Positions 2,090 to 54,110 of a stretch of DNA of 64,000 bases are shown here, in pieces (position 1 is the stretch's first letter; every line of letters starts with the position of its first letter). Origin of the DNA: Candidatus Hydrogenedentota bacterium (GTDB taxonomy: Bacteria; Hydrogenedentota; Hydrogenedentia; Hydrogenedentales; SLHB01); the NCBI GenBank assembly GCA_045863335.1, contig BTVY01000023.1:15755-79754 (forward strand), read 5' to 3'. The translations under genes were made by a program, and so were the position numbers. The notes beneath the pieces are model-generated. The model was not told the DNA's origin, did not search any database, and was given only the letters and a program-made list of their open reading frames with translations.

Positions 2090-2785
2090 ATGAGCAACGA
2101 TACCTCATCGGGGGCCGTGGTCCTGGTAAGCGGCGGAATCGATTCCTCCGTGCTGCTCCATCACGTGTCGCGGAATTTGAAACATGCGCCCCTTCATGTC
2201 TTGAGTTTTAACTACGGCCAGCGCCATTCGAAGGAAATCGATTGCGCCCGCTGGCAGGCGGATGCCGTCGATGCGGACGCCCACCGCATCATCGACATCA
2301 GTTTCATGGGCGGGCTGGTGCGCGGGGCGTCGGCACTCATCTCCGGCGGAAAGACCGTTCCCGAATTCGCGGCGTTGGCCCCCTCGGACCTGGACCAGCC
2401 GCCGACTTACGTGCCGAACCGCAACATGATTCTCCTTTCAATCGCGGCGGCTTATGCGGAGGCCCACGGCATTCGCAACGTGTTCTACGGCGCCCAGGCT
2501 TTGGATGAGTATGGCTATTGGGATTGTACGACCGACTTCCTGGAACGCGTCAACGCGGTGCTCTCCCTGAACCGTAGAGAGCGCGTCACCGTTCACGCGC
2601 CTTTCATTGAAAAAAGAAAGGCGGACTCAGTTCGGCTCGGGCAGGAGCTGGGCGTCTTGTTTACCCAGACTTGGTCGTGCTATCGCGGAGAGGAAAAAGC
2701 CTGTGGGGTTTGCCCGACCTGCGTGGAACGGTTGAAGGCGTTCCAAGAGGCCGGCATCGAAGACCCCGTTCCCTATGAGACCTAG
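2090..2785 (+). CDS. queC: 7-cyano-7-deazaguanine synthase QueC
   Basis: PP-loop VSGGIDSS, NYGQRH, and C-terminal zinc motif CGVCPTC. 231 aa. Confidence 0.85.
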   Translation: MSNDTSSGAVVLVSGGIDSSVLLHHVSRNLKHAPLHVLSFNYGQRHSKEIDCARWQADAVDADAHRIIDISFMGGLVRGASALISGGKTVPEFAALAPSDLDQPPTYVPNRNMILLSIAAAYAEAHGIRNVFYGAQALDEYGYWDCTTDFLERVNAVLSLNRRERVTVHAPFIEKRKADSVRLGQELGVLFTQTWSCYRGEEKACGVCPTCVERLKAFQEAGIEDPVPYET

Positions 2786-2813
2786 TGGGTTCGAACTGCC
2801 GGGATAGGAACAC

Positions 2814-3641
2814 ATGCTGAACAATCAAGTCGTTCTCATCACCGGCTGTTCCTCGGGGATTGGCCGGGCCTTGGCCGTCGAATTTGCAATGCAGGGGCAC
2901 CGGGTCATCGCTTCCGCGCGCAGACCCGAAAGCATCGCGGATCTGACCGCGCAACAGATCGAAACCGCACAGATCGATGTGACCGACCCGGCATCGATCA
3001 AGGACGCTGTGGAAACGATTATCGCCGCTGCGGGTCGAATCGACATCCTCGTCAACAACGCGGGCTTCGGCCAAATCGCTCCCATGATCGACGTGCCCAT
3101 CGAGAAACTCCGGCTGCAACTCGAAACCAATGTCATCGGCGCCGTCGCCATGATGCGGGCCGTGGCTCCCCATATGATTCGGCAGCGCCACGGACGCATC
3201 GTCCAGATCGGGAGCATCTCGGGAATCCTGACGACCCCCTTCGCCGGCTCCTACTGCGCGTCCAAGGCGGCGTTGCACGCCCTGTCCGAATCGGCGCGGA
3301 TGGAACTCAAGCCTTTCGGAATCGACACGATCATCGTTCAACCCGGAGGCGTGACGACGCGATTCGGCGACACATCGACCGGCCACATCGTGATGCGTCC
3401 CGGGTCGGTATATGGCGGGATCGCCGGGCATATCGCGGCACGCGCCCAAACGTCTCAGCACGGCGCGGCCCCTGTGGACAAGGTCGCCCGGAAGATTGTC
3501 GCTGCGGCCACGCGTTCCCGGCCGCCTCGCGTACTCCGCCTGGGGCGTGGAGGACACCGGTATCCCCTGATTAAGCGGCTTGTGCCCGATGCGCTGCTCG
3601 ACAGGGTCCTCATGAAGATGTTTGGGCTGTCGGAGTTGTAG
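2814..3641 (+). CDS. Short-chain dehydrogenase/reductase (SDR)
   Basis: TGCSSGIGRA Rossmann motif, NNAG, catalytic YCASKAA (YxxxK). Confidence 0.8.
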   Translation: MLNNQVVLITGCSSGIGRALAVEFAMQGHRVIASARRPESIADLTAQQIETAQIDVTDPASIKDAVETIIAAAGRIDILVNNAGFGQIAPMIDVPIEKLRLQLETNVIGAVAMMRAVAPHMIRQRHGRIVQIGSISGILTTPFAGSYCASKAALHALSESARMELKPFGIDTIIVQPGGVTTRFGDTSTGHIVMRPGSVYGGIAGHIAARAQTSQHGAAPVDKVARKIVAAATRSRPPRVLRLGRGGHRYPLIKRLVPDALLDRVLMKMFGLSEL

Positions 3642-3717
3642 GGGGCAGTGAGATTCGTTTTCCTCGGATACGTGCCTGAAAAGCGAGGACTCGCGCGCGA
3701 CCGTCCGATCCTTCCCG

Positions 3718-4641
3718 CTATCGCCCTATAACCGATACGCTGCCGCTGAACGATCGAGCCCTTACGCGGGCAGCGCCGCTTCCAGCAACATACTCGAGGG
3801 ATCGGCCCGGACCAAACTTGGGTTCGTTTACCTCTCCCCCGAAATCGCTATCAATGCCTCCGCTGAAGGTGTTCAGATCCAACGAGACCGGAGACCCCGC
3901 GGGAAGCACGATATCGATGCTGCCGCTGTGGGTTTGAAGTTCGGCCTCTCCGTTGGCAGCGATCGCGCCGATGAAATCGACCGAACCGGAGACCGTCTCG
4001 CATTGAAGCAACTCCACGTCCACGGATTCGATATCGATGCTCCCACTCACCGTGGACGCCGCGATGCGTTCCATACGAGTTCGCACCGTATCCGGGTCGT
4101 CGGGAGCGGAACGGAGCGGGGCATTGGAAGCCACCATAATGTCCACCTTGCCGCTGACCGTTTTTGCCTCAACGCTGGTCGGACGGCCTTCGACTTCCAG
4201 TGAACCGCTTACCGTTTCGGCGCGCACCCGGCCCGCGGTTTGCAGGGCCTCGACTTTTCCGCTGACGGTGCGCAGGTCCAGGCCGCCTTCCACATCCTCA
4301 ACTTCAATCTTCGCGCTGACGCATTCCACCTGAACCGTTGCGCCGAAGGGCACGCGCACTAGCAGGCTGGCTTCCTTGGGACGCTTGTTCGGGTTCGACA
4401 CGCGAATGGTCAAGCGGTCTTCGGTACCGCTGAACTCCAGGACATCCGAATCGGAGCCCAGTTTTCCCGTCACTTCGACGACGGCCTGCTCCCATCCGAG
4501 GATGTCAACGGAGCCTTTCGTGTTGGTGACATCTACAGCCACGTCCCGTGTGGCTGGCCGCAACTCTTCGATTTGCGTCTCGGCAATTGCCACCCCGACG
4601 ATTGCCGCCGCGACGATCGCGATTCGTACATAAGTCTCCAT
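3718..4641 (-). CDS. DUF4097 (YvlB/LiaF-like putative adhesin beta-helix) domain protein
   Basis: Repeated TVSGSV/TVSGKV/HSGSID beta-helix repeats and an N-terminal TM helix. Immediately downstream of the anti-sigma gene on the same strand. Confidence 0.6.
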   Translation of the reverse strand: METYVRIAIVAAAIVGVAIAETQIEELRPATRDVAVDVTNTKGSVDILGWEQAVVEVTGKLGSDSDVLEFSGTEDRLTIRVSNPNKRPKEASLLVRVPFGATVQVECVSAKIEVEDVEGGLDLRTVSGKVEALQTAGRVRAETVSGSLEVEGRPTSVEAKTVSGKVDIMVASNAPLRSAPDDPDTVRTRMERIAASTVSGSIDIESVDVELLQCETVSGSVDFIGAIAANGEAELQTHSGSIDIVLPAGSPVSLDLNTFSGGIDSDFGGEVNEPKFGPGRSLEYVAGSGAARVRARSFSGSVSVIGR

Positions 4642-4652
4642 TACCCAATCCC

Positions 4653-5303
4653 CTAGAGTTGCGCAGGCAATTGCGTCGCCTGCTGCAAGAGGTCCACTTC
4701 CTGATCGTAGGCGGCCACGAGTGACCGAATGAGCTGTTGATTGGCGGGGTCCTGTTTCAACGCCGCCTTTATCTCGGCAATCGCGGTGCCGATAATCGCG
4801 AGATTCTCATCCACCACCGCAACCGTTTCCGGCGACAACTGGTCGCGCGAGTCATCCAGCGCTTGCACCAGGAGCGCGCGGGCCTGGCCGTACTCGGCCT
4901 CGACAAGCGCCAATTCCGAGCCGTCCGTTTTGCCGGGCTCAACGAGCGTCACAGTCGTGTCCTGCGGCGGCGTGCCCCATTGGAATTGCGCGAACAGGAT
5001 TCCCGCGAAGAAGACGGCCGCAAAGGACGCCGCAAGCAAGGCGTACCGGTACCGGCCCGAGCCTTTCGGTCGTTCCGGCTCGCGCCGCTCCAGGCGCGCT
5101 TCGATACCCGCCCAGAGATCGCGCTGCGGCGTCACGGTCTTCGGGAGCGCCGCCGCTTCGTCCATCACCCGCCGCAGCGAAGTTTCCAAGGCTCGATAAT
5201 CCGCGTCTCGCGCGAGTTCTTGCTCCACGGTTGCCGCTTCCTCGGGCGTCAACACGCCGTCGAGATAGTCGTTCAACCGGGCTTCCCGATCATCCACGTT
5301 CAT
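4653..5303 (-). CDS. Anti-sigma factor (single-pass membrane protein)
   Basis: N-terminal anti-sigma-like helix (LNDYLDGVLTPEEAATVEQELA) and a central TM segment (YALLAASFAAVFFAGILFA). The start overlaps the sigma stop (ATGA). Confidence 0.55.
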   Translation of the reverse strand: MNVDDREARLNDYLDGVLTPEEAATVEQELARDADYRALETSLRRVMDEAAALPKTVTPQRDLWAGIEARLERREPERPKGSGRYRYALLAASFAAVFFAGILFAQFQWGTPPQDTTVTLVEPGKTDGSELALVEAEYGQARALLVQALDDSRDQLSPETVAVVDENLAIIGTAIAEIKAALKQDPANQQLIRSLVAAYDQEVDLLQQATQLPAQL

Positions 5304-34305: not shown

Positions 34306-34588
34306 CAAATTCGAAATCCGAAGCACGAAATCCGAAAACAAATTCTAATAACCGAAATTCAAAAAGACCCGTTCTCGATCAAACCGAAACAACCAATCCT
34401 CGCGAAGACCTTGAACCATACCGAAACGCGAATCCTTCGTGGCTTGGACGCCGTCGCCCAAGACGTATTGTCGGAATAGCCTGAGCGCGGCTCCCAAAAC
34501 CTTGGGCGAGGACGCCCAAGCACGGGATATACTTTCGCGCTTTGAACATTAATCTGTTTCGGATTTCGTGCTTCGGATTTCGAGTTTA
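34306..34588. mobile_element. MITE/REP-like element copy A: ~38-bp terminal inverted repeats flanking a ~205-bp non-coding core
   Basis: TIR-L caaattcgaaatccgaagcacgaaatccgaaaacaaatt (34306-34344) versus the reverse complement of TIR-R aatctgtttcggatttcgtgcttcggatttcgagttta (34551-34588): ~36/39 identical. Each TIR holds two CGAAATCCGAA units. The core contains two related hairpins (cttggacgccgtcgcccaag, cttgggcgaggacgcccaag). Confidence 0.45.
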
Positions 34589-34599
34589 ATCCCCTTACC

Positions 34600-34932
34600 T
34601 TACGGAATCGACGGAGGCGGGACAAGGGGCTCTCCCGATTCCAGCGAACGGACCACCGCGTCCAGAATAGGCTCAAGGTCGGCCGCGGTCACATGCGAGT
34701 ACCAGACGTTGTCCGGAAACACCATGATGTTGGGGCCGTCCTCGCACTTGTCCATGCAGCCCGACTGACTGACTCGAATCCTTGAGCGAAGCTGCCGCGC
34801 CTTGACCATGGCTTTGAGCGTGTCACGCAGTTCTCCGCCGCCCGCGCTCATGCAGCAGACCCGCTCGCCCTCCGCGCGTTCGTTGGTGCAGACAAAGATG
34901 ATCTTCTCAAAGGGTAGCGAATTGACGTCCAT
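34600..34932 (-). CDS. (2Fe-2S) thioredoxin-like ferredoxin domain protein
   Basis: FVCTNERAEGERVCCMSAGG ... SGCMDKCEDGPNIMVFPDNVWY Cys pattern. Start trimmed to MDVNSL with a GAAGG RBS. Confidence 0.45.
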   Translation of the reverse strand: MDVNSLPFEKIIFVCTNERAEGERVCCMSAGGGELRDTLKAMVKARQLRSRIRVSQSGCMDKCEDGPNIMVFPDNVWYSHVTAADLEPILDAVVRSLESGEPLVPPPSIP

Positions 34933-35045
34933 AGCGCGCCTTCTGAAAGGTAAAGCCGTTCCTAGCCCCAGGATCGATGATGGCGGGATTATACAGAATT
35001 CCGTGCCAATCGGAACGTGCCCGGCGGTCACACCCGTTGCGGCCT

Positions 35046-35088
35046 TTCGAATTTTGGACATTCGAAATTGTTCCGGATTTCGGATTTG
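35046..35088. repeat. Solo copy of the CGAAATCCGAA-type terminal repeat (right-end-like orientation)
   Basis: ttcgaattttggacattcgaaattgttccggatttcggatttgg is ~75% identical to the right-end region of copy B (ttcgaatttataacatttgaatttgtttcggatttcgag). Confidence 0.3.
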
Positions 35089-35195
35089 GTTCTTTCGCGG
35101 CGCCATACCTTGTCCCTCACGATGCCATTCGATATGCTGTGGTCCAGGCGGCAACCGCTGCCATCGACTTCCATCACCGGCCTACGGGGTATCTT

Positions 35196-41750: not shown

Positions 41751-41854
41751 CATTAGCGGCTTCGGTGAGTTCCCTTTTCAGGTCGGACGAGACAGGCCCT
41801 CCAACGGACGGCAAACATGTGAGCCAGAGATTCTGAATGGATGTCCGTGTTAAG

Positions 41855-41872
41855 TCCCCCTTCGAAGGGGGA
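41855..41872. promoter_or_regulatory. Perfect 18-bp palindrome TCCCCCTTCGAAGGGGGA between ubiB and ispE
   Basis: Read directly; followed by ttt then aggggg. Could be a weak terminator or an operator. Confidence 0.3.
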
Positions 41873-41930
41873 TTTAGGGGGATGTTTCCCGAAGAACCGG
41901 GATCAGCTATCGGTTGTTGCAGGAACAAAC

Positions 41931-42800
41931 ATGCTCGAGATCAAGTCCCACGCCAAGATCAACCTCTACCTCGACGTGCTCAACAAACGGCGCGACGGGT
42001 TCACCAATATTGAAACCATCTTCCAGACCGTAAGCCTGGCGGATACGCTCCTGCTCGAACCACGGCCGGAAGAAGTCACCATGGAGTGCACCATGCCCGG
42101 CGTGCCGACGGACGAGTCGAACCTCGTCATCCGCGCCGCGCGATTGCTACAGCAGGAAACCGGTTGCCGCGCTGGCGCACACATGCGGCTGGAGAAACGC
42201 ATCCCCATGGCCGCGGGACTCGCAGGAGGTTCGGGGAACGGTGCCGCGGCCCTGGCCGGACTGAACGATTTGTGGGGCCTTGGCCTATCGATGCCGCGCC
42301 TGGAACGCCTGGCTGCGCGGCTCGGATCGGACGTGCCCTATTGCCTCCATGGCGGCACTGTCGCCGCGACCGGACGGGGCGAGCGCATGAAGCAACTGGG
42401 CCCGATTCAGGAAACGTGGTTCGTCCTGCTGCACCCCGACCTGCACGTGAGCACGCGCGACGTGTACACCAGTCCGGACTTGGCACGCAGCGCCGAACGG
42501 CCATTCGCCGGATCGACGCCCGCCTTTCGTCGCGCCATCGAAGCGGTAACCGAAGGGCGCCTCGCCGATGCACTATTCAACCGCATGGAAACGGCCGCTT
42601 TCCCCATGCACCCCGAGTTGGCGGATTGGAAGCAACAACTGCTCGACTGCGGCTGCAACGCCGCCATCATGAGCGGCAGCGGCCCCACCGTCTTCGGACT
42701 CTGCGCGTCGCAGCAGCACGCGGAGTCTGTCGCCGGACAAATGAGCGGGATTCGCGTGTCGGTCGTCCATAGCGTGGACCGGGCGCTTGAGTTGATCTAA
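41931..42800 (+). CDS. ispE: 4-diphosphocytidyl-2-C-methyl-D-erythritol kinase
   Basis: N-terminal AKINLYLDVLNKRRDGF and GHMP-kinase motif PMAAGLAGGSGNGAAAL. Start trimmed to MLEIKSH with an AGGAA RBS. Confidence 0.8.
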   Translation: MLEIKSHAKINLYLDVLNKRRDGFTNIETIFQTVSLADTLLLEPRPEEVTMECTMPGVPTDESNLVIRAARLLQQETGCRAGAHMRLEKRIPMAAGLAGGSGNGAAALAGLNDLWGLGLSMPRLERLAARLGSDVPYCLHGGTVAATGRGERMKQLGPIQETWFVLLHPDLHVSTRDVYTSPDLARSAERPFAGSTPAFRRAIEAVTEGRLADALFNRMETAAFPMHPELADWKQQLLDCGCNAAIMSGSGPTVFGLCASQQHAESVAGQMSGIRVSVVHSVDRALELI

Positions 42801-43074
42801 ATTCGAAATCCGAATCTCGAAATCCGAAACAAATCCGAAGGACCAAAACCCTAAACGTGACCGTTCCGGTCGGCTGGCGGGAGACGGTCACCGTGGCAGT
42901 GCGCGAGTCGAAGGCTGAAGCGGAGTTCGCCGCTGGCACCAACGAAGGTTATGAATACTGACCGAACCAGAAACTCCTGCGATAACCGATAAACGCTGTT
43001 GAGGCCCGTTTCGGTCATTCGAATTTATAACATTTGAATTTGTTTCGGATTTCGAGATTCGGATCTCGAATTTG
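42799..43074. mobile_element. MITE/REP-like element copy B: ~35-bp terminal inverted repeats flanking a ~205-bp non-coding core
   Basis: TIR-L aaattcgaaatccgaatctcgaaatccgaaacaaa (42799-42833) versus the reverse complement of TIR-R tttgtttcggatttcgagattcggatctcgaatttg (43039-43074): near-perfect. The element exactly fills the gap between the convergent ispE stop (42800) and esterase stop (43080). Confidence 0.45.
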
Positions 43075-43079
43075 TCTTC

Positions 43080-45089
43080 TCAGTTTCGCCCCACCGGATT
43101 ACCGACCGCATTGGTGGGCTCGATCACTTCGACTTTATCGCCAAGTGATTCGACCAAGTCCGGAAGATCGTAAACCCGTAACGCCCCGTGTACGACGTTT
43201 TCGTATTGCCGCTTCGTCTCCGGCGTGCGCACGACGCTGGACCAGGACTGCAGCGAGCGAGTCAGCGTGACGCGGCTGAACAAGTCCGGCTCCAGCGCAG
43301 CGGCGTGAAGGGCCGGCGGTCCCGCGACGTCCTGCGCCAAGAGCACCACCTTACGCGCCGCGCCAGCGTTCTCGTAGGTCGCCGCGAAACGGGCGCAGAC
43401 CAGCGCGTCTTCGGCGCGCATGCTCAAGATGGGCTTGTCGAGCAGGTACGCCAGCGATGTGGCCTTGTAGCCGGGGCCGAAAGCGTGGTCCCAACCTTCG
43501 CCGTGGGTCCAGTTGGACGTGGTTTCGCCAAGGCCGCGAAGGTCCGCAGCCACGACGACGTACCCGCTGCGCGCGAGCTGAGCGAGCGAGTCGTGGTCGA
43601 GGTCCGCCTTGCCATTCGCGAGGACCAGCATGGCTTCCCCATTGACCGCTTCGGGGAGGTAGACGACTGCAGGAAGGTGTATTCCGAGTTCTGGCGTCAG
43701 CACCACATGCCGAACGGTGCAGCCGTACTCCTTCGCCTCGTGCGCCACAACGATCTCGGGCTCCGGAAGTTCCGCCAGAGGCCGAATCCCCGTCACGTCG
43801 CGCACCTGCGAGATGAGGTTATCTTTTGGAGCGGCCTTGCGCGACTCCGCGAGTTGCGCGTCCACCTCCGCGTTGATGTCGAATACCGATCGCGCACCGT
43901 CCAGCAACAGGACCTGCCCTTGCGGCGTGACCTGCACTTCGGCATCCGTCAAGACGTCGACATCCCCTTCAACCACGGGCTCATCGACCCCTTTAAGCCA
44001 ACGCAACATCCACCGAGCCATGGCCTGGCGCAGCAGGATGGTGAACCCGTGTTGCTCGTCCGCCTCGGCGAGGTTTACCCGCTCTTCGTACCCAAGCTTG
44101 GTGTAGGCGCGTTTTGCGACGCGGAAGCTGTCCCACACCCCGGCAATAGGAAAAAAATCCTGCGTGGCGCAACAGATGAGCGTGGGCCGCGGCGCGCGCA
44201 TGAGCAGGAAGTCGCTGTGGTCCATCCCAAACGCGAGGGCGCCCGCGATGTTCTGTTCACCGTCATGCGGACCATCCTTGATAATAAGGTTCTTCAACGA
44301 CGTGATGTAGCAGCTCGGCGCGGCGCAGACCACCCGTTCGTCGAGCGCCATGATATAGCTGGTCAAGGTGCCGCCGCCGGAGTTGCCGGTGCATCCAATG
44401 CGTTCCGGGTCGATGTCGTCGCGACTGCAGAGGTAATCGATCCCGCGAATGCCGTCCCAGATGCGGTAGCCCGCCACGTTCAACCCAAGGGGTATGCTGC
44501 CCACGGTGACGATGGTGTGTTCGATGGTCGATCCGTACTTCTGCTTGCTGTTCTCGTCGAGCAACTGGCTGCGCTCGCCCTGACCGATGGGGTCATAGAT
44601 CATCGCCGCGATGCCGTTGCGGGCAAGAAGTACGGCGGCCCGCTGGTAAGCTTCCGCAGCCTTACCGTTGGCGTCGTGTCCGCAGGGCACGAGCACGCCG
44701 GGATAAGGCCCTTCCGTCAGCGGCAAGTAGATGATGGCAGTCACATAGAGACCAGGCCGGCTCTCGTAGAGGATCTTCTCGTACCGGAATCCGTCGCGGG
44801 TTTCGCCCGGGAATACCTGCGCATTCAACGGAGTCTTCTCCGGCCAGCCGCCAAGTTGTTGAACGAAGAATTCGCGCATGCGCTGTCCCCGCGCGAGGAT
44901 GCTCTCCGGCGTCGCGAGATCCTGCTCCAGCACCTCGGCGCGATTCTCAAAAGCGTCGACCATCTCGCCGCGCAGGTAGAGCGTCATCACTTCCGCGGGT
45001 GACGCACCGTTGGGCAGAGGCTGGAGGATCTGCGCTCCGGGGTCCGCACCCAACGTTGCTGTTAATACTGTTACCGCCGCCATCCACAT
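43080..45089 (-). CDS. Secreted alpha/beta-hydrolase (acetyl-xylan-esterase/dienelactone-hydrolase-like)
   Basis: GCTGNSGGG nucleophile elbow. Signal peptide after trimming the start to MWMAAVTVLTATLGA (GGAGG RBS). Confidence 0.5.
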   Translation of the reverse strand: MWMAAVTVLTATLGADPGAQILQPLPNGASPAEVMTLYLRGEMVDAFENRAEVLEQDLATPESILARGQRMREFFVQQLGGWPEKTPLNAQVFPGETRDGFRYEKILYESRPGLYVTAIIYLPLTEGPYPGVLVPCGHDANGKAAEAYQRAAVLLARNGIAAMIYDPIGQGERSQLLDENSKQKYGSTIEHTIVTVGSIPLGLNVAGYRIWDGIRGIDYLCSRDDIDPERIGCTGNSGGGTLTSYIMALDERVVCAAPSCYITSLKNLIIKDGPHDGEQNIAGALAFGMDHSDFLLMRAPRPTLICCATQDFFPIAGVWDSFRVAKRAYTKLGYEERVNLAEADEQHGFTILLRQAMARWMLRWLKGVDEPVVEGDVDVLTDAEVQVTPQGQVLLLDGARSVFDINAEVDAQLAESRKAAPKDNLISQVRDVTGIRPLAELPEPEIVVAHEAKEYGCTVRHVVLTPELGIHLPAVVYLPEAVNGEAMLVLANGKADLDHDSLAQLARSGYVVVAADLRGLGETTSNWTHGEGWDHAFGPGYKATSLAYLLDKPILSMRAEDALVCARFAATYENAGAARKVVLLAQDVAGPPALHAAALEPDLFSRVTLTRSLQSWSSVVRTPETKRQYENVVHGALRVYDLPDLVESLGDKVEVIEPTNAVGNPVGRN

Positions 45090-45167
45090 GGTCTTTCCTC
45101 CAACGTTTGCCGCGCCAATCTCAGAATTGTAGGGAGCGCGAGGACGGGCGGTCAATGGCGAGAAGGA

Positions 45168-45218
45168 AATACGTAATCCGAATTTCGGAATCCGAAACAA
45201 ATTCGAAGGACCAAAACA
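45168..45218. repeat. Solo left-end-like copy of the CGAAATCCGAA-type repeat
   Basis: cgtaatccgaatttcggaatccgaaacaaattcgaaggaccaaaac. Shares TIR plus the adjacent CGAAGGACCAAAAC with the left end of copy B, in the same orientation. Confidence 0.3.
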
Positions 45219-45324
45219 CGAAACTGGGGGGCCGAATCGTTGGAAGCGTGCTCGTTGCACATCCGATCGGTACAATGGTGCGGACCTTTTGAAACGAGTA
45301 CCACGACTTGCGGGGGTTCCATCC

Positions 45325-48312
45325 ATGGCGCGTTCGATTTGGATTCTAGTGTTGACGTTGGGTCTCTGGTCGGGCGCGGCTTGGTGCCAGGCCGTGGAGG
45401 ATGCGCCCGTCCCGGAGAAGGTCTATCAGGGCGACCTCATCGCCTATCCCGGACCGTGGGCCTTTGAACTGGGGCGTCCGCACATCATCCTCGTAAGCGA
45501 CGAGGAGTTAGAATTCCTCTCCGACCCTGACAAGGTCTTCAATATGACCACGGGCCGCAACCCGCGCGAAGACTCGCTGCGATCCATTTGCGAACGCGCC
45601 CAGGCCGCCGGGCATCCGACGCTCGTCATCGCATTCGACCATTTCTTCAGCCAATACCGTCCCGGCCAGGAAGGGAAGCCGCGCCGCCTCACGCCGGACA
45701 TGGACGAGTACGTGGAGCGCATGACCGCCATCGCGAAGTTCGCCCAAGGCTACGGGCTTGGCCTGGAGCTGAGCCTGTTGAGCCCCCTCGAAATCGGGCC
45801 CGCCTACCGCGCCGCCACGGGCGAGTCGGGCGTATGGATGCATTACCGGAAAGGCGTGCGCGACCCGGAGACCGGCGCGTTCAGCGTGCAGCTCTGGCAA
45901 CACCAGCGCTGGTCCAACAACAAAGGCCCCATCGACCTCGAAGATGCGGGCGTGCGTGTGTTTGCGTTCAACGAGCGCGGCGTCCGCGGAACGCCGTACC
46001 GCGTCGTCGATCCCGCGTCCATCATTGAGATTACGGACGTGGCAAAGGTGGAGCCGTGGGACGGCGCCGTTCGCACTGCCGGCGACTTCCGCGCGCGGCG
46101 GGTCCGCATCCATGGCGAAGGACGCACGGAGATTGGCAATCTCGATCGCGTGCTGGTCGTGCAGGTTTACCGTACGCCGGAGATGGACTATTTCAGCGAC
46201 CAGGCCCTGCCCTTTCTCAAAGGACTCATCGACAAGTACGCCGACGCGGGCGTAAAACTCAACGGCCTCTACTCCGACGAGATGCACATCCAGCAGGACT
46301 GGGGGTACTTCAACCACCACGACAACGGCGAATTCGCGGTGCGCTACGTAAGCCCGGGCATTGTGAACAAGTTCGCGGACCGCTATGGCGAGGAGTACCG
46401 CGACTTCGCGAAGTACCTGGTCTATTTCTGCTACGGCCAGGAAGACACCATGCACGATCTCAGCGCGAAGCAAGGCGTCATGCACGCCTTCGGCGATTCG
46501 CCGGAAGCCATCGCACAGACGGCCTTGTTCCGCGCGCGGTACTACCACTTCCTGCAAGATGGCGTTGTCGATCTCTTCGCTGCGGCGAAGGATCATGCCG
46601 AACGCCGCATGGGACATCGCCTCCACGCGCGCGCCCACGCCACCTGGGCTGAGAGTCCTACTATCGACAAGTGGAACACGGGCCGCCTGCCTCATGCGCG
46701 GAATCAGTACGAGTACACCTCCAACTTCCTCTGGTCCGATACGGTCCACCAAGCGACCTCGGCCTGTTACGACTACTTCAAGTGGGGCGACTTTCTCACG
46801 GGAAACGGCAACGACCACGCCGAGGGCGGCTGGCTCGACCGAAACTATTTCGCCATGGCGCTCGCGTGTTCGACGGGAATTCTGAACGAGGTGCCCTACT
46901 CCTACGCCGCTCATTGGGGTATGCCGCATGAACTGGCGCAACGGCGCCACGCCTTGGTCGACGTGTACGGCGCGGCGGCGTCGCCTCCCTTCATGCTCGT
47001 GGAAGAGGCGCAACACCGCGACACGGACGTGCTCATGCTGTATCCAATCGACCTCGTTGCGGCGGAAGAACGCTTCGGAAGCTGGATGACGCAGTACGGC
47101 TACGCGAACTACATCACCCAGGCGAAACTGCTCGAACGCGGCGTCGTGAAGAATGGCGCCATTGAAGTTGCTGGACGACGGTTCACAACCCTCGTCACGC
47201 TCTTCGAACCCTTCCCGAGCCCGGCGCTCATGACCATGATGAACGACCTCGCCGCGCAAGGTGGACGCGTGATCTGGTCGGGTCCACCGCCGGTGCTGGA
47301 CGCCGAGGGCAGTCCGGTCACGGCCGCGTGGAACGATCTCTTCGGCGTGGAATCCACGCCTGAACCCGGTGACGGGCTTATCGTCCCGGGCCGGGAGATC
47401 CAATTCGCAGGACCCCTGGCGCAGGTGCCCGCGCAAGCGATTCTGACGGACTTCATCGTGGACCGCATCTATCCCGTGACCGCGCGTGAAGGTGCCGCGG
47501 TCGCAGCAACCGTGCAGGACTGGACCGTCGGCGCCGTGCGGGCCACCGAATCCGGCGGCAGCCTGACCTATCTTGGGTTCCGCCCTCGTGACGATCAGGC
47601 GGCCAGCCTGGGCTATGAAACCCGCACTTGGTTCGAGGTGCTGAACGCGCTTGGCGCCTATCCCGCGTCGGGGGCCTTCGAAGGTATTAACGACAATCCC
47701 GACTACCTATCGCGCACGACCGAGTACCTGGTAGGCCGCTTCCCGAACGGTACCGTCGCAATCGCGCCCCACTTCCGCGCCATGGAAGAAGGCTGGCCCG
47801 GCGGGTTCGCGCGCAACGAAGAAGAGGACGCCGCGTATCTCACCGCAAATCCTCCGCCTTCCGACGCGCTGCAATTGCGGGACTTCAAAGCCTGGGGTCA
47901 TACGATTACCTACGAAGGTACGGGCGCCATGGCGTTCCGCCTGGACGACACGAACCGGCTCGTTGCCTTTGCCGGGTCCGGCTCCAACGCCGTCACCCTC
48001 GACGGTCAGACGCACACCTTCACCGACGGATCGCTCGCGCGTGTGGCGTGGGCGCCGGTCGCCGAAGCGCGTAAGGTCCCCGGCGGCGCTCTGGTTCAAA
48101 TCCTCGCCCACGGCAACGGCACGCTGCGCATTCCCGCAGCCAACATTCCGGCTGACGCGGTGGTCGTAGCCCAAGGCGCCACACCGGGCAGCCGCGGCGC
48201 GGTGGTCGAATCAACGCGCGAGGGCGACTATCTGCTGGTGACGATCGGGCCCGGATCTTCCGGCCGCTGGCTGTTTGCCGGTCCCGCGAGTCCGGCGCCG
48301 ACGGCTTCCTAG
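45325..48312 (+). CDS. Large secreted hypothetical protein (~1000 aa), possible carbohydrate-active enzyme
   Basis: Signal peptide MARSIWILVLTLGLWSGAAWCQA. No confident family; neighbours are esterase, GH95 and sulfatase. Confidence 0.4.
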   Translation: MARSIWILVLTLGLWSGAAWCQAVEDAPVPEKVYQGDLIAYPGPWAFELGRPHIILVSDEELEFLSDPDKVFNMTTGRNPREDSLRSICERAQAAGHPTLVIAFDHFFSQYRPGQEGKPRRLTPDMDEYVERMTAIAKFAQGYGLGLELSLLSPLEIGPAYRAATGESGVWMHYRKGVRDPETGAFSVQLWQHQRWSNNKGPIDLEDAGVRVFAFNERGVRGTPYRVVDPASIIEITDVAKVEPWDGAVRTAGDFRARRVRIHGEGRTEIGNLDRVLVVQVYRTPEMDYFSDQALPFLKGLIDKYADAGVKLNGLYSDEMHIQQDWGYFNHHDNGEFAVRYVSPGIVNKFADRYGEEYRDFAKYLVYFCYGQEDTMHDLSAKQGVMHAFGDSPEAIAQTALFRARYYHFLQDGVVDLFAAAKDHAERRMGHRLHARAHATWAESPTIDKWNTGRLPHARNQYEYTSNFLWSDTVHQATSACYDYFKWGDFLTGNGNDHAEGGWLDRNYFAMALACSTGILNEVPYSYAAHWGMPHELAQRRHALVDVYGAAASPPFMLVEEAQHRDTDVLMLYPIDLVAAEERFGSWMTQYGYANYITQAKLLERGVVKNGAIEVAGRRFTTLVTLFEPFPSPALMTMMNDLAAQGGRVIWSGPPPVLDAEGSPVTAAWNDLFGVESTPEPGDGLIVPGREIQFAGPLAQVPAQAILTDFIVDRIYPVTAREGAAVAATVQDWTVGAVRATESGGSLTYLGFRPRDDQAASLGYETRTWFEVLNALGAYPASGAFEGINDNPDYLSRTTEYLVGRFPNGTVAIAPHFRAMEEGWPGGFARNEEEDAAYLTANPPPSDALQLRDFKAWGHTITYEGTGAMAFRLDDTNRLVAFAGSGSNAVTLDGQTHTFTDGSLARVAWAPVAEARKVPGGALVQILAHGNGTLRIPAANIPADAVVVAQGATPGSRGAVVESTREGDYLLVTIGPGSSGRWLFAGPASPAPTAS

Positions 48313-54033: not shown

Positions 54034-54110
54034 AATCGCTATCGGGATCGGGATCGAAATCGTGCGGCACTTCGATACCGATCCCGATAGCGATACCGAT
54101 ACCGATGAGG
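54034..54110. repeat. Long near-perfect inverted repeat (24-bp arms of GATCGG/CCGATC units, 1 mismatch, 12-bp loop)
   Basis: atcgctatcgggatcgggatcgaa-atcgtgcggcac-ttcgataccgatcccgatagcgat, then further (gatacc)n. Several GATC sites. Confidence 0.5.

Follow-up and report, generated by a model that had tools for sequence, protein, structure and literature searches.

The intervening sequences (IVSs) of bacterial 23S rRNA have left their origin and mobility, and the function of the four-helix-bundle open reading frame (ORF) that they carry, unexplained since the early 1990s (PMC4990558). In Coxiella, the IVS is 428 nt long and of unknown origin, contains a PF05635 ORF, is closed by a 28-bp terminal stem that RNase III cuts, and bears two or three tandem heptamer repeats whose number differs between strains (PMC4990558). 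Here we examine a 276-bp hairpin element, referred to as copy B, which is inserted in the gap between ispE and a convergent hydrolase gene of a Candidatus Hydrogenedentota bacterium, within a 64,000-nt stretch of contig BTVY01000023.1 (assembly GCA_045863335.1) that we call the window. Our preferred reading, to which we assign a probability of roughly 0.6, is that copy B belongs, as a form without a gene, to a family of palindromic cassettes that spans many phyla and whose full-length members carry a PF05635 gene.

The cassettes resemble the 23S rRNA IVSs of Leptospira, Coxiella and Xanthomonas (PMC4990558) in size (441–720 nt versus 428 nt in Coxiella), in the terminal inverted repeats that close a long stem, in the variable heptamers near their ends, in the gene family of their cargo and in being inserted within a host transcription unit; in both, origin and mobility are unexplained. 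The two also differ. IVSs occupy helix 25 or 45 of 23S rRNA, whereas copy B lies between protein-coding genes and none of 60 gene-carrying cassettes lies in rRNA; copy B has no ORF; and the heptamer is AAATYCG here but GACAGAT in the IVSs. Finally, RNase III cleavage is known for Coxiella, while the stem described here is a predicted one.

A second parallel is offered by repetitive extragenic palindromic (REP) sequences, their hairpin-forming doublets (REPINs) and the REP-associated tyrosine transposases (RAYTs; PMC3733652). There, too, spacers contain hairpins built from inverted doublets that are non-autonomous, cognate repeats surround a gene of single-copy type, the kind of repeat changes with the gene lineage, and elements persist for long at orthologous sites. 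In the present family, however, we find neither a RAYT nor a GTAG/CGTC tag, arrays of 60–70 nt take the place of 20–40-nt palindromes, and the protein is a four-helix bundle for which no catalytic activity is known. Bacterial MITEs (miniature inverted-repeat transposable elements) such as Correia, RUP and Nezha (PMC10969869) are likewise 100–400 bp long, intergenic, bounded by terminal inverted repeats (TIRs), variably present and able to affect the ends of neighbouring genes. Unlike them, the elements described here show no target-site duplication (TSD), parent insertion sequence (IS) or transposase, and their near-identical ends across phyla and phages would be unusual for a MITE.

Heptamer arrays and PF05635-like proteins have also been described separately. 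TAACTGA arrays of Beggiatoaceae, Cyanobacteria and Bacteroidetes are tandem heptamers beside start and stop codons, with a patchy distribution that suggests horizontal transfer 'with no mechanism evident' (PMC4679880), and inverted MTYCTGA arrays occur in Geobacter (PMC2700814), some of the arrays being laid out as hairpins; both have another unit sequence, and neither a PF05635 link nor a bounded cassette is reported for them (PMC4679880, PMC2700814). The homologous Avd protein of diversity-generating retroelements (DGRs) is a four-helix bundle that forms pentamers and binds both nucleic acid and reverse transcriptase (PMC10053308), but the cassettes have neither a reverse transcriptase nor a template or variable repeat beside them. 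PF05635 genes have further been noted inside cas operons (PMC3936711). In the open-access literature we found no description of heptamer-armed PF05635 cassettes outside rRNA or of gene-less derivatives, and the repeat strings matched only unrelated primer sequences there; the family is apparently undescribed.

Copy B is bounded by inverted heptamer arrays

An inverted-repeat search placed the arms of copy B at 42799–42839 and 43033–43073, each 41 nt long, 93% complementary and separated by 193 nt. A 32-nt arm pattern allowing up to three mismatches matched only these two sites in the window, with 0 expected from shuffled sequence. The left arm begins within the ispE stop codon (TAA, 42798–42800) and the right arm ends six bases ahead of the hydrolase stop codon (tca, TGA on the minus strand, 43080–43082). 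Each arm is a degenerate array of period 7 (AAATCCG, 4.4 copies; Tandem Repeats Finder, TRF), and a profile of family arms searched with nhmmer stretches the two to about 60–69 nt (Table 1), including a subterminal GAATGACCGAAAC segment in the right arm that is common to gene-carrying elements. As for the core between the arms, blastn against all loci found no similarity to the core of copy A, the second full element in the window, or to any other locus except the ortholog in a close relative (97%). Searches of Rfam at permissive thresholds with copies A and B returned matches at chance level only.

Much of an initial annotation of this DNA is borne out by these results: the near-perfect TIRs, an element that fills the whole ispE/hydrolase gap, the two flanking genes, confirmed by their GHMP-kinase and alpha/beta-hydrolase domains (Pfam), and a second copy that aligns with copy B at its ends only. 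The internal hairpin gtgaccgt..acggtcac that it pointed out belongs to the minimum-energy fold of copy B. Its description of the arms held as far as their inversion is concerned, while the TIR of about 35 bp that it proposed is replaced by period-7 arrays of about 60–69 nt.

The same ends recur across phyla and enclose PF05635 genes

Throughout the family, both ends consist of (AAATYCG)n followed by AAACAAAT and YCRAATG/ACCRAAA, in inverted order and about 60–70 nt each, and copy B fits this structure. A genome scan for ATCCGAANNNCGAAATCCGAAA, with one genome per species, listed at least 120 loci from more than 12 phyla, among the matches listed Planctomycetota, Verrucomicrobiota, Acidobacteriota, Desulfobacterota, Patescibacteria, Omnitrophota, Chloroflexota and others. 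Part of these matches are pure (CGAAATC)n arrays, and others agree with the window arms over more than 30 nt, such as AAATTCGAAATCCGAAGCACGAAATCCGAAACAAAT in Syntrophobacteria and other delta-proteobacterial metagenome-assembled genomes (MAGs). Within the genome loci, the arm profile detected 41 short plus/minus pairs, which are gene-less like copy B, and 93 arms outside short pairs. All paired elements fold into long hairpins and most occupy a short spacer between ORFs, a placement that copy B shares through its overlap with the ispE stop codon and its 6-nt distance from the hydrolase stop. The termini of 61 elements read 5'-AAAT..ATTT-3' and no TSD was found in their flanks; the number of heptamers per arm varies from 2 to 7.

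Phages carry these ends as well. A 17-nt arm core occurs in 22 viral contigs, several of which hold complete gene-less pairs (L134 4573–4679, L145 4736–4842, L137 6383–6543 and L147 122–236) located inside structural modules, between head-tail adaptor/Neck1 genes, between portal and head-maturation protease genes or near a terminase gene. Phage carriage offers a vehicle for transfer between lineages. Copy B itself had no blastn match among cultured phage and plasmid records, a search in which low-complexity masking may hide the arms.

The gene associated with these arms became apparent at locus L120, where they enclose a 121-aa ORF matching PF05635 (23S_rRNA_IVP, E 2.6e-11) and TIGR02436 ("four helix bundle protein"), with 2rld as the nearest solved structure. 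Further PF05635 genes lie beside arms at L060, L009 and L041. The cassettes at L060 (2667–3130) and L009 (3443–3900) encode another protein subfamily and have the opposite array order, (GATTTCG)n-gene-(CGAAATC)n. Both are inserted inside operons: judging from the translations, the former presumably lies between V-type ATPase B and D genes and the latter after a pyrR-like gene.

We also approached the association from the protein side, using 80 independent metagenome loci that encode relatives of the L120 protein, 64 of them with enough flanking sequence. A strong inverted repeat spanned the PF05635 gene in 37 of these 64 loci, with scores of 18–50 against shuffle maxima of about 10–15, and nearly all of these repeats consisted of degenerate AAATnnN heptamers in arrays that end in AAACAAAT. 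In 18 of the 64, the arms were of the CGAAATCCGAA type in the same order as in copy B. Gene-less elements (A, B and others) and gene-carrying ones have 65–70 nt in common at each end, including the non-periodic subterminal GAATGWCCGAAAC. Full-length members measure about 440–720 nt and contain a single PF05635/TIGR02436 gene, which is the sole recurrent cargo in a survey of 80 metagenome loci, 22 viral loci and at least 120 genome loci. Among these loci the survey revealed neither a transposase nor a RAYT as partner: transposases are absent from between paired arms, and the only two long arm pairs (2–3 kb) contain a molybdopterin oxidoreductase and a VWA protein. The PF05635 family is very large; searching with the protein gave at least about 8,000 matches, of which the best 120 were from Planctomycetota.

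Arm sequence and protein sequence vary together. Arms fall into four heptamer types (CGA, CTA, CCA and ACA), and in 47 of 64 cases a protein and its nearest neighbour share their arm type, compared with an expectation of 16 and a maximum of 32 in 5000 shuffles, which indicates that arm type and protein lineage are inherited together. Of 29 gene-carrying cassettes, 25 point in the same direction as the gene upstream (p = 1e-4), and the cassettes mostly begin 3–20 nt past the stop codon of that gene, the same geometry as that of copy B at ispE.

Two further kinds of array turned up in these surveys. The Acidobacteria MAG SZAS-13 (L040, L063, L086, L102, L108 and L112) has many operon spacers filled by pure units, (GATTTCG)n...(CGAAATC)n, each roughly 130 nt long, and its arrays flank a molybdopterin oxidoreductase gene, a VWA gene and a putative bacterial microcompartment (BMC) shell gene, which we take to be such from its translated sequence only. 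Elsewhere, (CGGAnnn)n arrays (CGGATTG, CGGATGG, CGGACTT and CGGACAT) directly adjoin CGGATTT arrays (L008, L009, L011, L024, L029, L032, L095 and L117), which suggests a wider set of related units.

Filled and empty sites point to a younger copy B and an older copy A

Relatives of the window genome allow the history of the ispE/hydrolase junction to be followed; the IspE sequence of the window itself had no exact counterpart among recorded proteins. The same element occupies the same 279-nt gap in L121 (GCA_964632865.1; IspE 96% identical), whereas the same convergent gene pair overlaps by 14 nt and has no element in L122, an 85% relative. Nor does any element follow ispE in L123 or L125, two further relatives with other downstream genes. 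Judged by this comparison, copy B was inserted where ispE and the hydrolase gene meet tail to tail, later than the divergence from the 85% relative. Where the site is filled, the stop codon of ispE consists of a host T and the first AA of the element, and the C-terminus of IspE is altered (..RALELI-stop versus ..QCLCSSSQSRSILR-stop); the element now supplies the stop codon of ispE. No TSD is apparent between filled and empty site, a comparison made at 85% relatedness and not precise to the nucleotide.

Copy B and its counterpart in L121 are 97.5% identical (7 differences in 276 nt), compared with third-codon-position identities of 0.855 for ispE and 0.694 for the hydrolase gene. Around the element (42550–43075) this identity is a mosaic, with third positions at 0.82 over most of ispE and 0.93 over its last 250 nt, the element at 0.975, and the hydrolase gene then at 0.65. 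Because the synonymous sites at the end of ispE are raised and identity drops sharply to the right of the element, we read at least part of this conservation as a recent recombination tract ending at the right arm. The element apparently sits at a recombination breakpoint. The 97.5% identity had at first been attributed to purifying selection, an interpretation that we withdrew because the adjacent ispE synonymous sites are raised as well. The seven substitutions show no compensatory signal.

Site A has a longer record. The orthologous spacer is occupied by an element with the same arms in L149 (phosphatase 95% identical) and in L153 (82%), while L151 (90%) has only a mini-hairpin and L155 (81%) only a degenerate arm. 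Third codon positions of the window and L153 are just 0.49 identical, yet the arm nearest the gene has hardly changed; the core in the centre, by contrast, is replaced even between the window and L149, and the cores of L149 and L153 are different and shorter. Arms that are kept while cores change must be either constrained or homogenised, with cores turning over. Across the four relatives the interior of this element has seemingly been exchanged or eroded as the arms persisted. Taken together, the comparisons suggest that site A is old and site B younger. For the initial annotation, which had proposed a comparison with related genomes as a check, the outcome is mixed: presence varies among relatives at site B, whereas relatives with as little as 82% protein identity still have site A occupied, their arms conserved and their core changed.

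Folding and transcription signals

Copy B folds far more stably than shuffled sequence, with z-scores of −8.5 (RNA, plus strand), −6.9 (RNA, minus strand) and −7.2 (DNA), a point in favour of the initial annotation. Its further suggestion of a bidirectional terminator fared less well: a consensus terminator scan of copy B yielded one small hairpin, inside the right arm, compared with 1.1 expected by chance, and the 3' flanks are not U-rich. The consensus scan thus lends such a role no support. A scan for the sigma-70 promoter consensus gave no match.

Other arms and gene calls in the window

In all, the 64-kb window contains two full copies and two solo arms (Table 1). The arms of copy A proper comprise 31 nt each (34307–34337 and 34557–34587; 97%). 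A partner arm was sought for both solo arms and none was found; the one at 45166–45225 is also present in the 96% relative (L121 4747–4813), and the one at 35034–35087 is followed on the minus strand by a TGTATAAT motif that resembles an extended −10 box.

Table 1 Coordinates of the copies, solo arms and flanking genes in the window
Feature	Position	Strand	Description	Evidence
Copy A	34307..34587		Arms as in copy B, different 213-nt core; between two minus-strand genes	Orthologous elements in L149, L153
Solo arm	35034..35087	-	About 90 nt upstream of small minus-strand gene 34600-34942	nhmmer E 1.3e-08
ispE	41931..42800	+	4-diphosphocytidyl-2-C-methyl-D-erythritol kinase	Pfam GHMP_kinases_N/C; 289-aa homologs, 96% identity; L121 gene 1508-2377
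Copy B left arm	42799..42858		AAATTCG AAATCCG AATCTCG AAATCCG AAACAAA TCCGAAG GACCAAA	Inverted repeat; TRF; nhmmer E 8.6e-15; end alignment with PF05635-carrying elements
Copy B core	42859..43004		Non-coding, unique; inner hairpin 42857-42891 (gtgaccgt..acggtcac)	
Copy B right arm	43005..43073		Reverse-complement array including subterminal GAATGACCGAAAC	Inverted repeat; nhmmer E 1.3e-15; end alignment
Hydrolase gene	43080..45089	-	Alpha/beta-hydrolase (Peptidase_S9 / Abhydrolase_1), convergent on ispE	Pfam; L121 ortholog 2657-4666
Solo arm	45166..45225	+	AAATACG TAATCCG AATTTCG GAATCCG AAACAAA TTCGAAG GACCAAAAC; divergent spacer upstream of hydrolase gene	nhmmer E 1.1e-10

Mechanical ORF calls are too long for three genes in the window (41841–42800, 43080–45326 and 34600–35154). 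Homologs place the start of ispE near 41931 (289 aa), that of the hydrolase gene near 45089 (from a 669-aa ortholog together with a GGAGGA ribosome-binding site) and that of the small gene near 34942. Heptamer arrays are free of stop codons in all six frames, so gene callers extend ORFs through them. The PF05635 ORF in L009 likewise runs into its array, ending in ..QIRNPKSEIRN. Two tight hairpins elsewhere in the window are unrelated to the family: one at 1839–1897 (26-nt arms, 92%, 7-nt loop) and one at 54035–54094 (24-nt arms, 96%, 12-nt loop), the latter made of GATCGGGATCG-type repeats.

Discussion

Several other explanations have to be set against a gene-less member of a PF05635 cassette family. 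Host selection for an RNA element, serving the convergent transcripts as bidirectional terminator, RNase III processing site or 3'-end stabiliser, would suit the strong fold on both strands, the exact placement at two convergent 3' ends, the conservation of the site A arms far beyond synonymous sites, and the higher conservation of copy B relative to neighbouring third codon positions. We nevertheless consider it unlikely: the element is missing in the 85% relative and in three other ispE contexts and is hence not required, no U-tract terminator signal exceeds chance, arm mismatches show no G.U bias, phages and more than 12 phyla have these ends beside unrelated genes, and the conservation of copy B reaches into the synonymous sites of ispE, as in a recombination tract. 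Still less probable is a classical MITE, that is, a deletion derivative of a DDE-transposase IS mobilised in trans through its TIRs. Small, intergenic elements with inverted ends, in several copies and with presence/absence at site B, look the part, yet the lack of TSDs in 61 elements, long arm pairs that hold a molybdopterin oxidoreductase and a VWA protein instead of a transposase, a recurrent cargo limited to PF05635, and arms of 2–7 heptamers in place of a fixed TIR all argue otherwise. The label MITE/REP-like in the initial annotation is apt insofar as copy B belongs to a dispersed family of insertions with conserved inverted ends and variable interiors; with TSD, transposase and RAYT all lacking, it stands as an analogy.

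The remaining alternatives carry little weight. If the variable core were the payload, a small RNA or micro-protein gene between generic arms, one could point to its 97% conservation in L121, its stable inner hairpin and a 34-codon GTG ORF at 42857–42961; we think this quite improbable given a unique core with no Rfam match, non-compensatory substitutions of which three of the four within the ORF are inferred to be non-synonymous, and the replacement of the site A core between close relatives. Independent growth of heptamer microsatellites at gene ends, mimicking a single element, gains some plausibility from the existence of pure (CGAAATC)n arrays and from heptanucleotide repeats being, as quoted from Mrazek 2007 in PMC4679880, the commonest long simple repeats in bacteria. 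It is very hard to reconcile with an empty site that lacks the whole 279-nt block including the non-repetitive core, with 65–70 nt of ends, non-periodic sequence included, common to elements of other phyla, or with arm strings of more than 30 nt that are identical across phyla, and we regard it as highly improbable. To a REP, BIME (bacterial interspersed mosaic element) or REPIN mobilised by a RAYT (Y1 HUH) transposase we attach almost no credence: spacer hairpin doublets, a gene flanked by cognate repeats and persistence at orthologous sites are architecturally analogous, but the 60–70-nt heptamer arrays end in AAAT/ATTT with no GTAG or CGTC tag and flank PF05635/TIGR02436 rather than a RAYT, so that only the analogy stands.

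The cassette reading has its own difficulties, and the following observations weigh against it. No PF05635 remnant was detected when the cores of copies A and B were searched with a profile in six frames, and their derivation by internal deletion is accordingly argued from the ends only; nor was a PF05635 gene found in 124 kb of sequence from Hydrogenedentota. With no rRNA match in any of the 60 gene-carrying cassettes tested, it is gene family and architecture that tie the elements to classical IVSs. Arm mismatches on the sense strand of 57 gene-carrying elements show no excess of G.U over A.C (106 versus 117), and across 21 elements arm similarity is no higher within an element than between elements (0.786 versus 0.795); selection for RNA pairing is therefore not demonstrated, and arrays recognised symmetrically as DNA would fit the data equally well. 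The conservation of copy B relative to L121 appears to be at least partly due to the recent recombination tract and is not proof of function. Moreover, neither nuclease nor recombinase activity is known for PF05635 proteins.

If copy B does belong to a PF05635 cassette family, the family would be a selfish, promoterless cassette transcribed by read-through from host genes. Its arms would close a long stem in the RNA, an RNase III-type substrate as in rRNA IVSs, which would allow the host to tolerate an insertion in a spacer, an operon or rRNA. Copies without the gene, A and B among them, might persist or spread in trans through a factor that recognises heptamer arrays, for which the PF05635 protein is the obvious candidate; alternatively, they could do so by homologous recombination through their arms, which would include transfer by phages or from one close relative to another. 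Copy B is probably near-neutral at ispE and perhaps separates the two convergent transcripts. Both the mode of movement and any benefit of the hairpin to ispE or the hydrolase gene are points that we infer.

A broader and clearly more tentative proposal is that the PF05635 four-helix-bundle proteins ('IVS protein'/Avd) are trans-acting partners of the arrays that flank them, forming a REPIN/RAYT-like system of promoterless cassettes and gene-less hairpins that has colonised spacers behind stop codons, operons, phages and 23S rRNA across more than 12 phyla. We consider this possible at best. If true, it would account for the source of rRNA intervening sequences and for identical heptamer repeats in unrelated phyla. 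Arrays that box a PF05635 gene, a co-oriented host gene upstream, and gene-less derivatives with filled and empty sites turn the question into a testable problem, with a defined unit of 150–500 bp open to binding, RNase III cleavage and mobility assays. For genome annotation there is a more immediate warning, in that ORFs run through the arrays and the elements create or replace stop codons, as at ispE.

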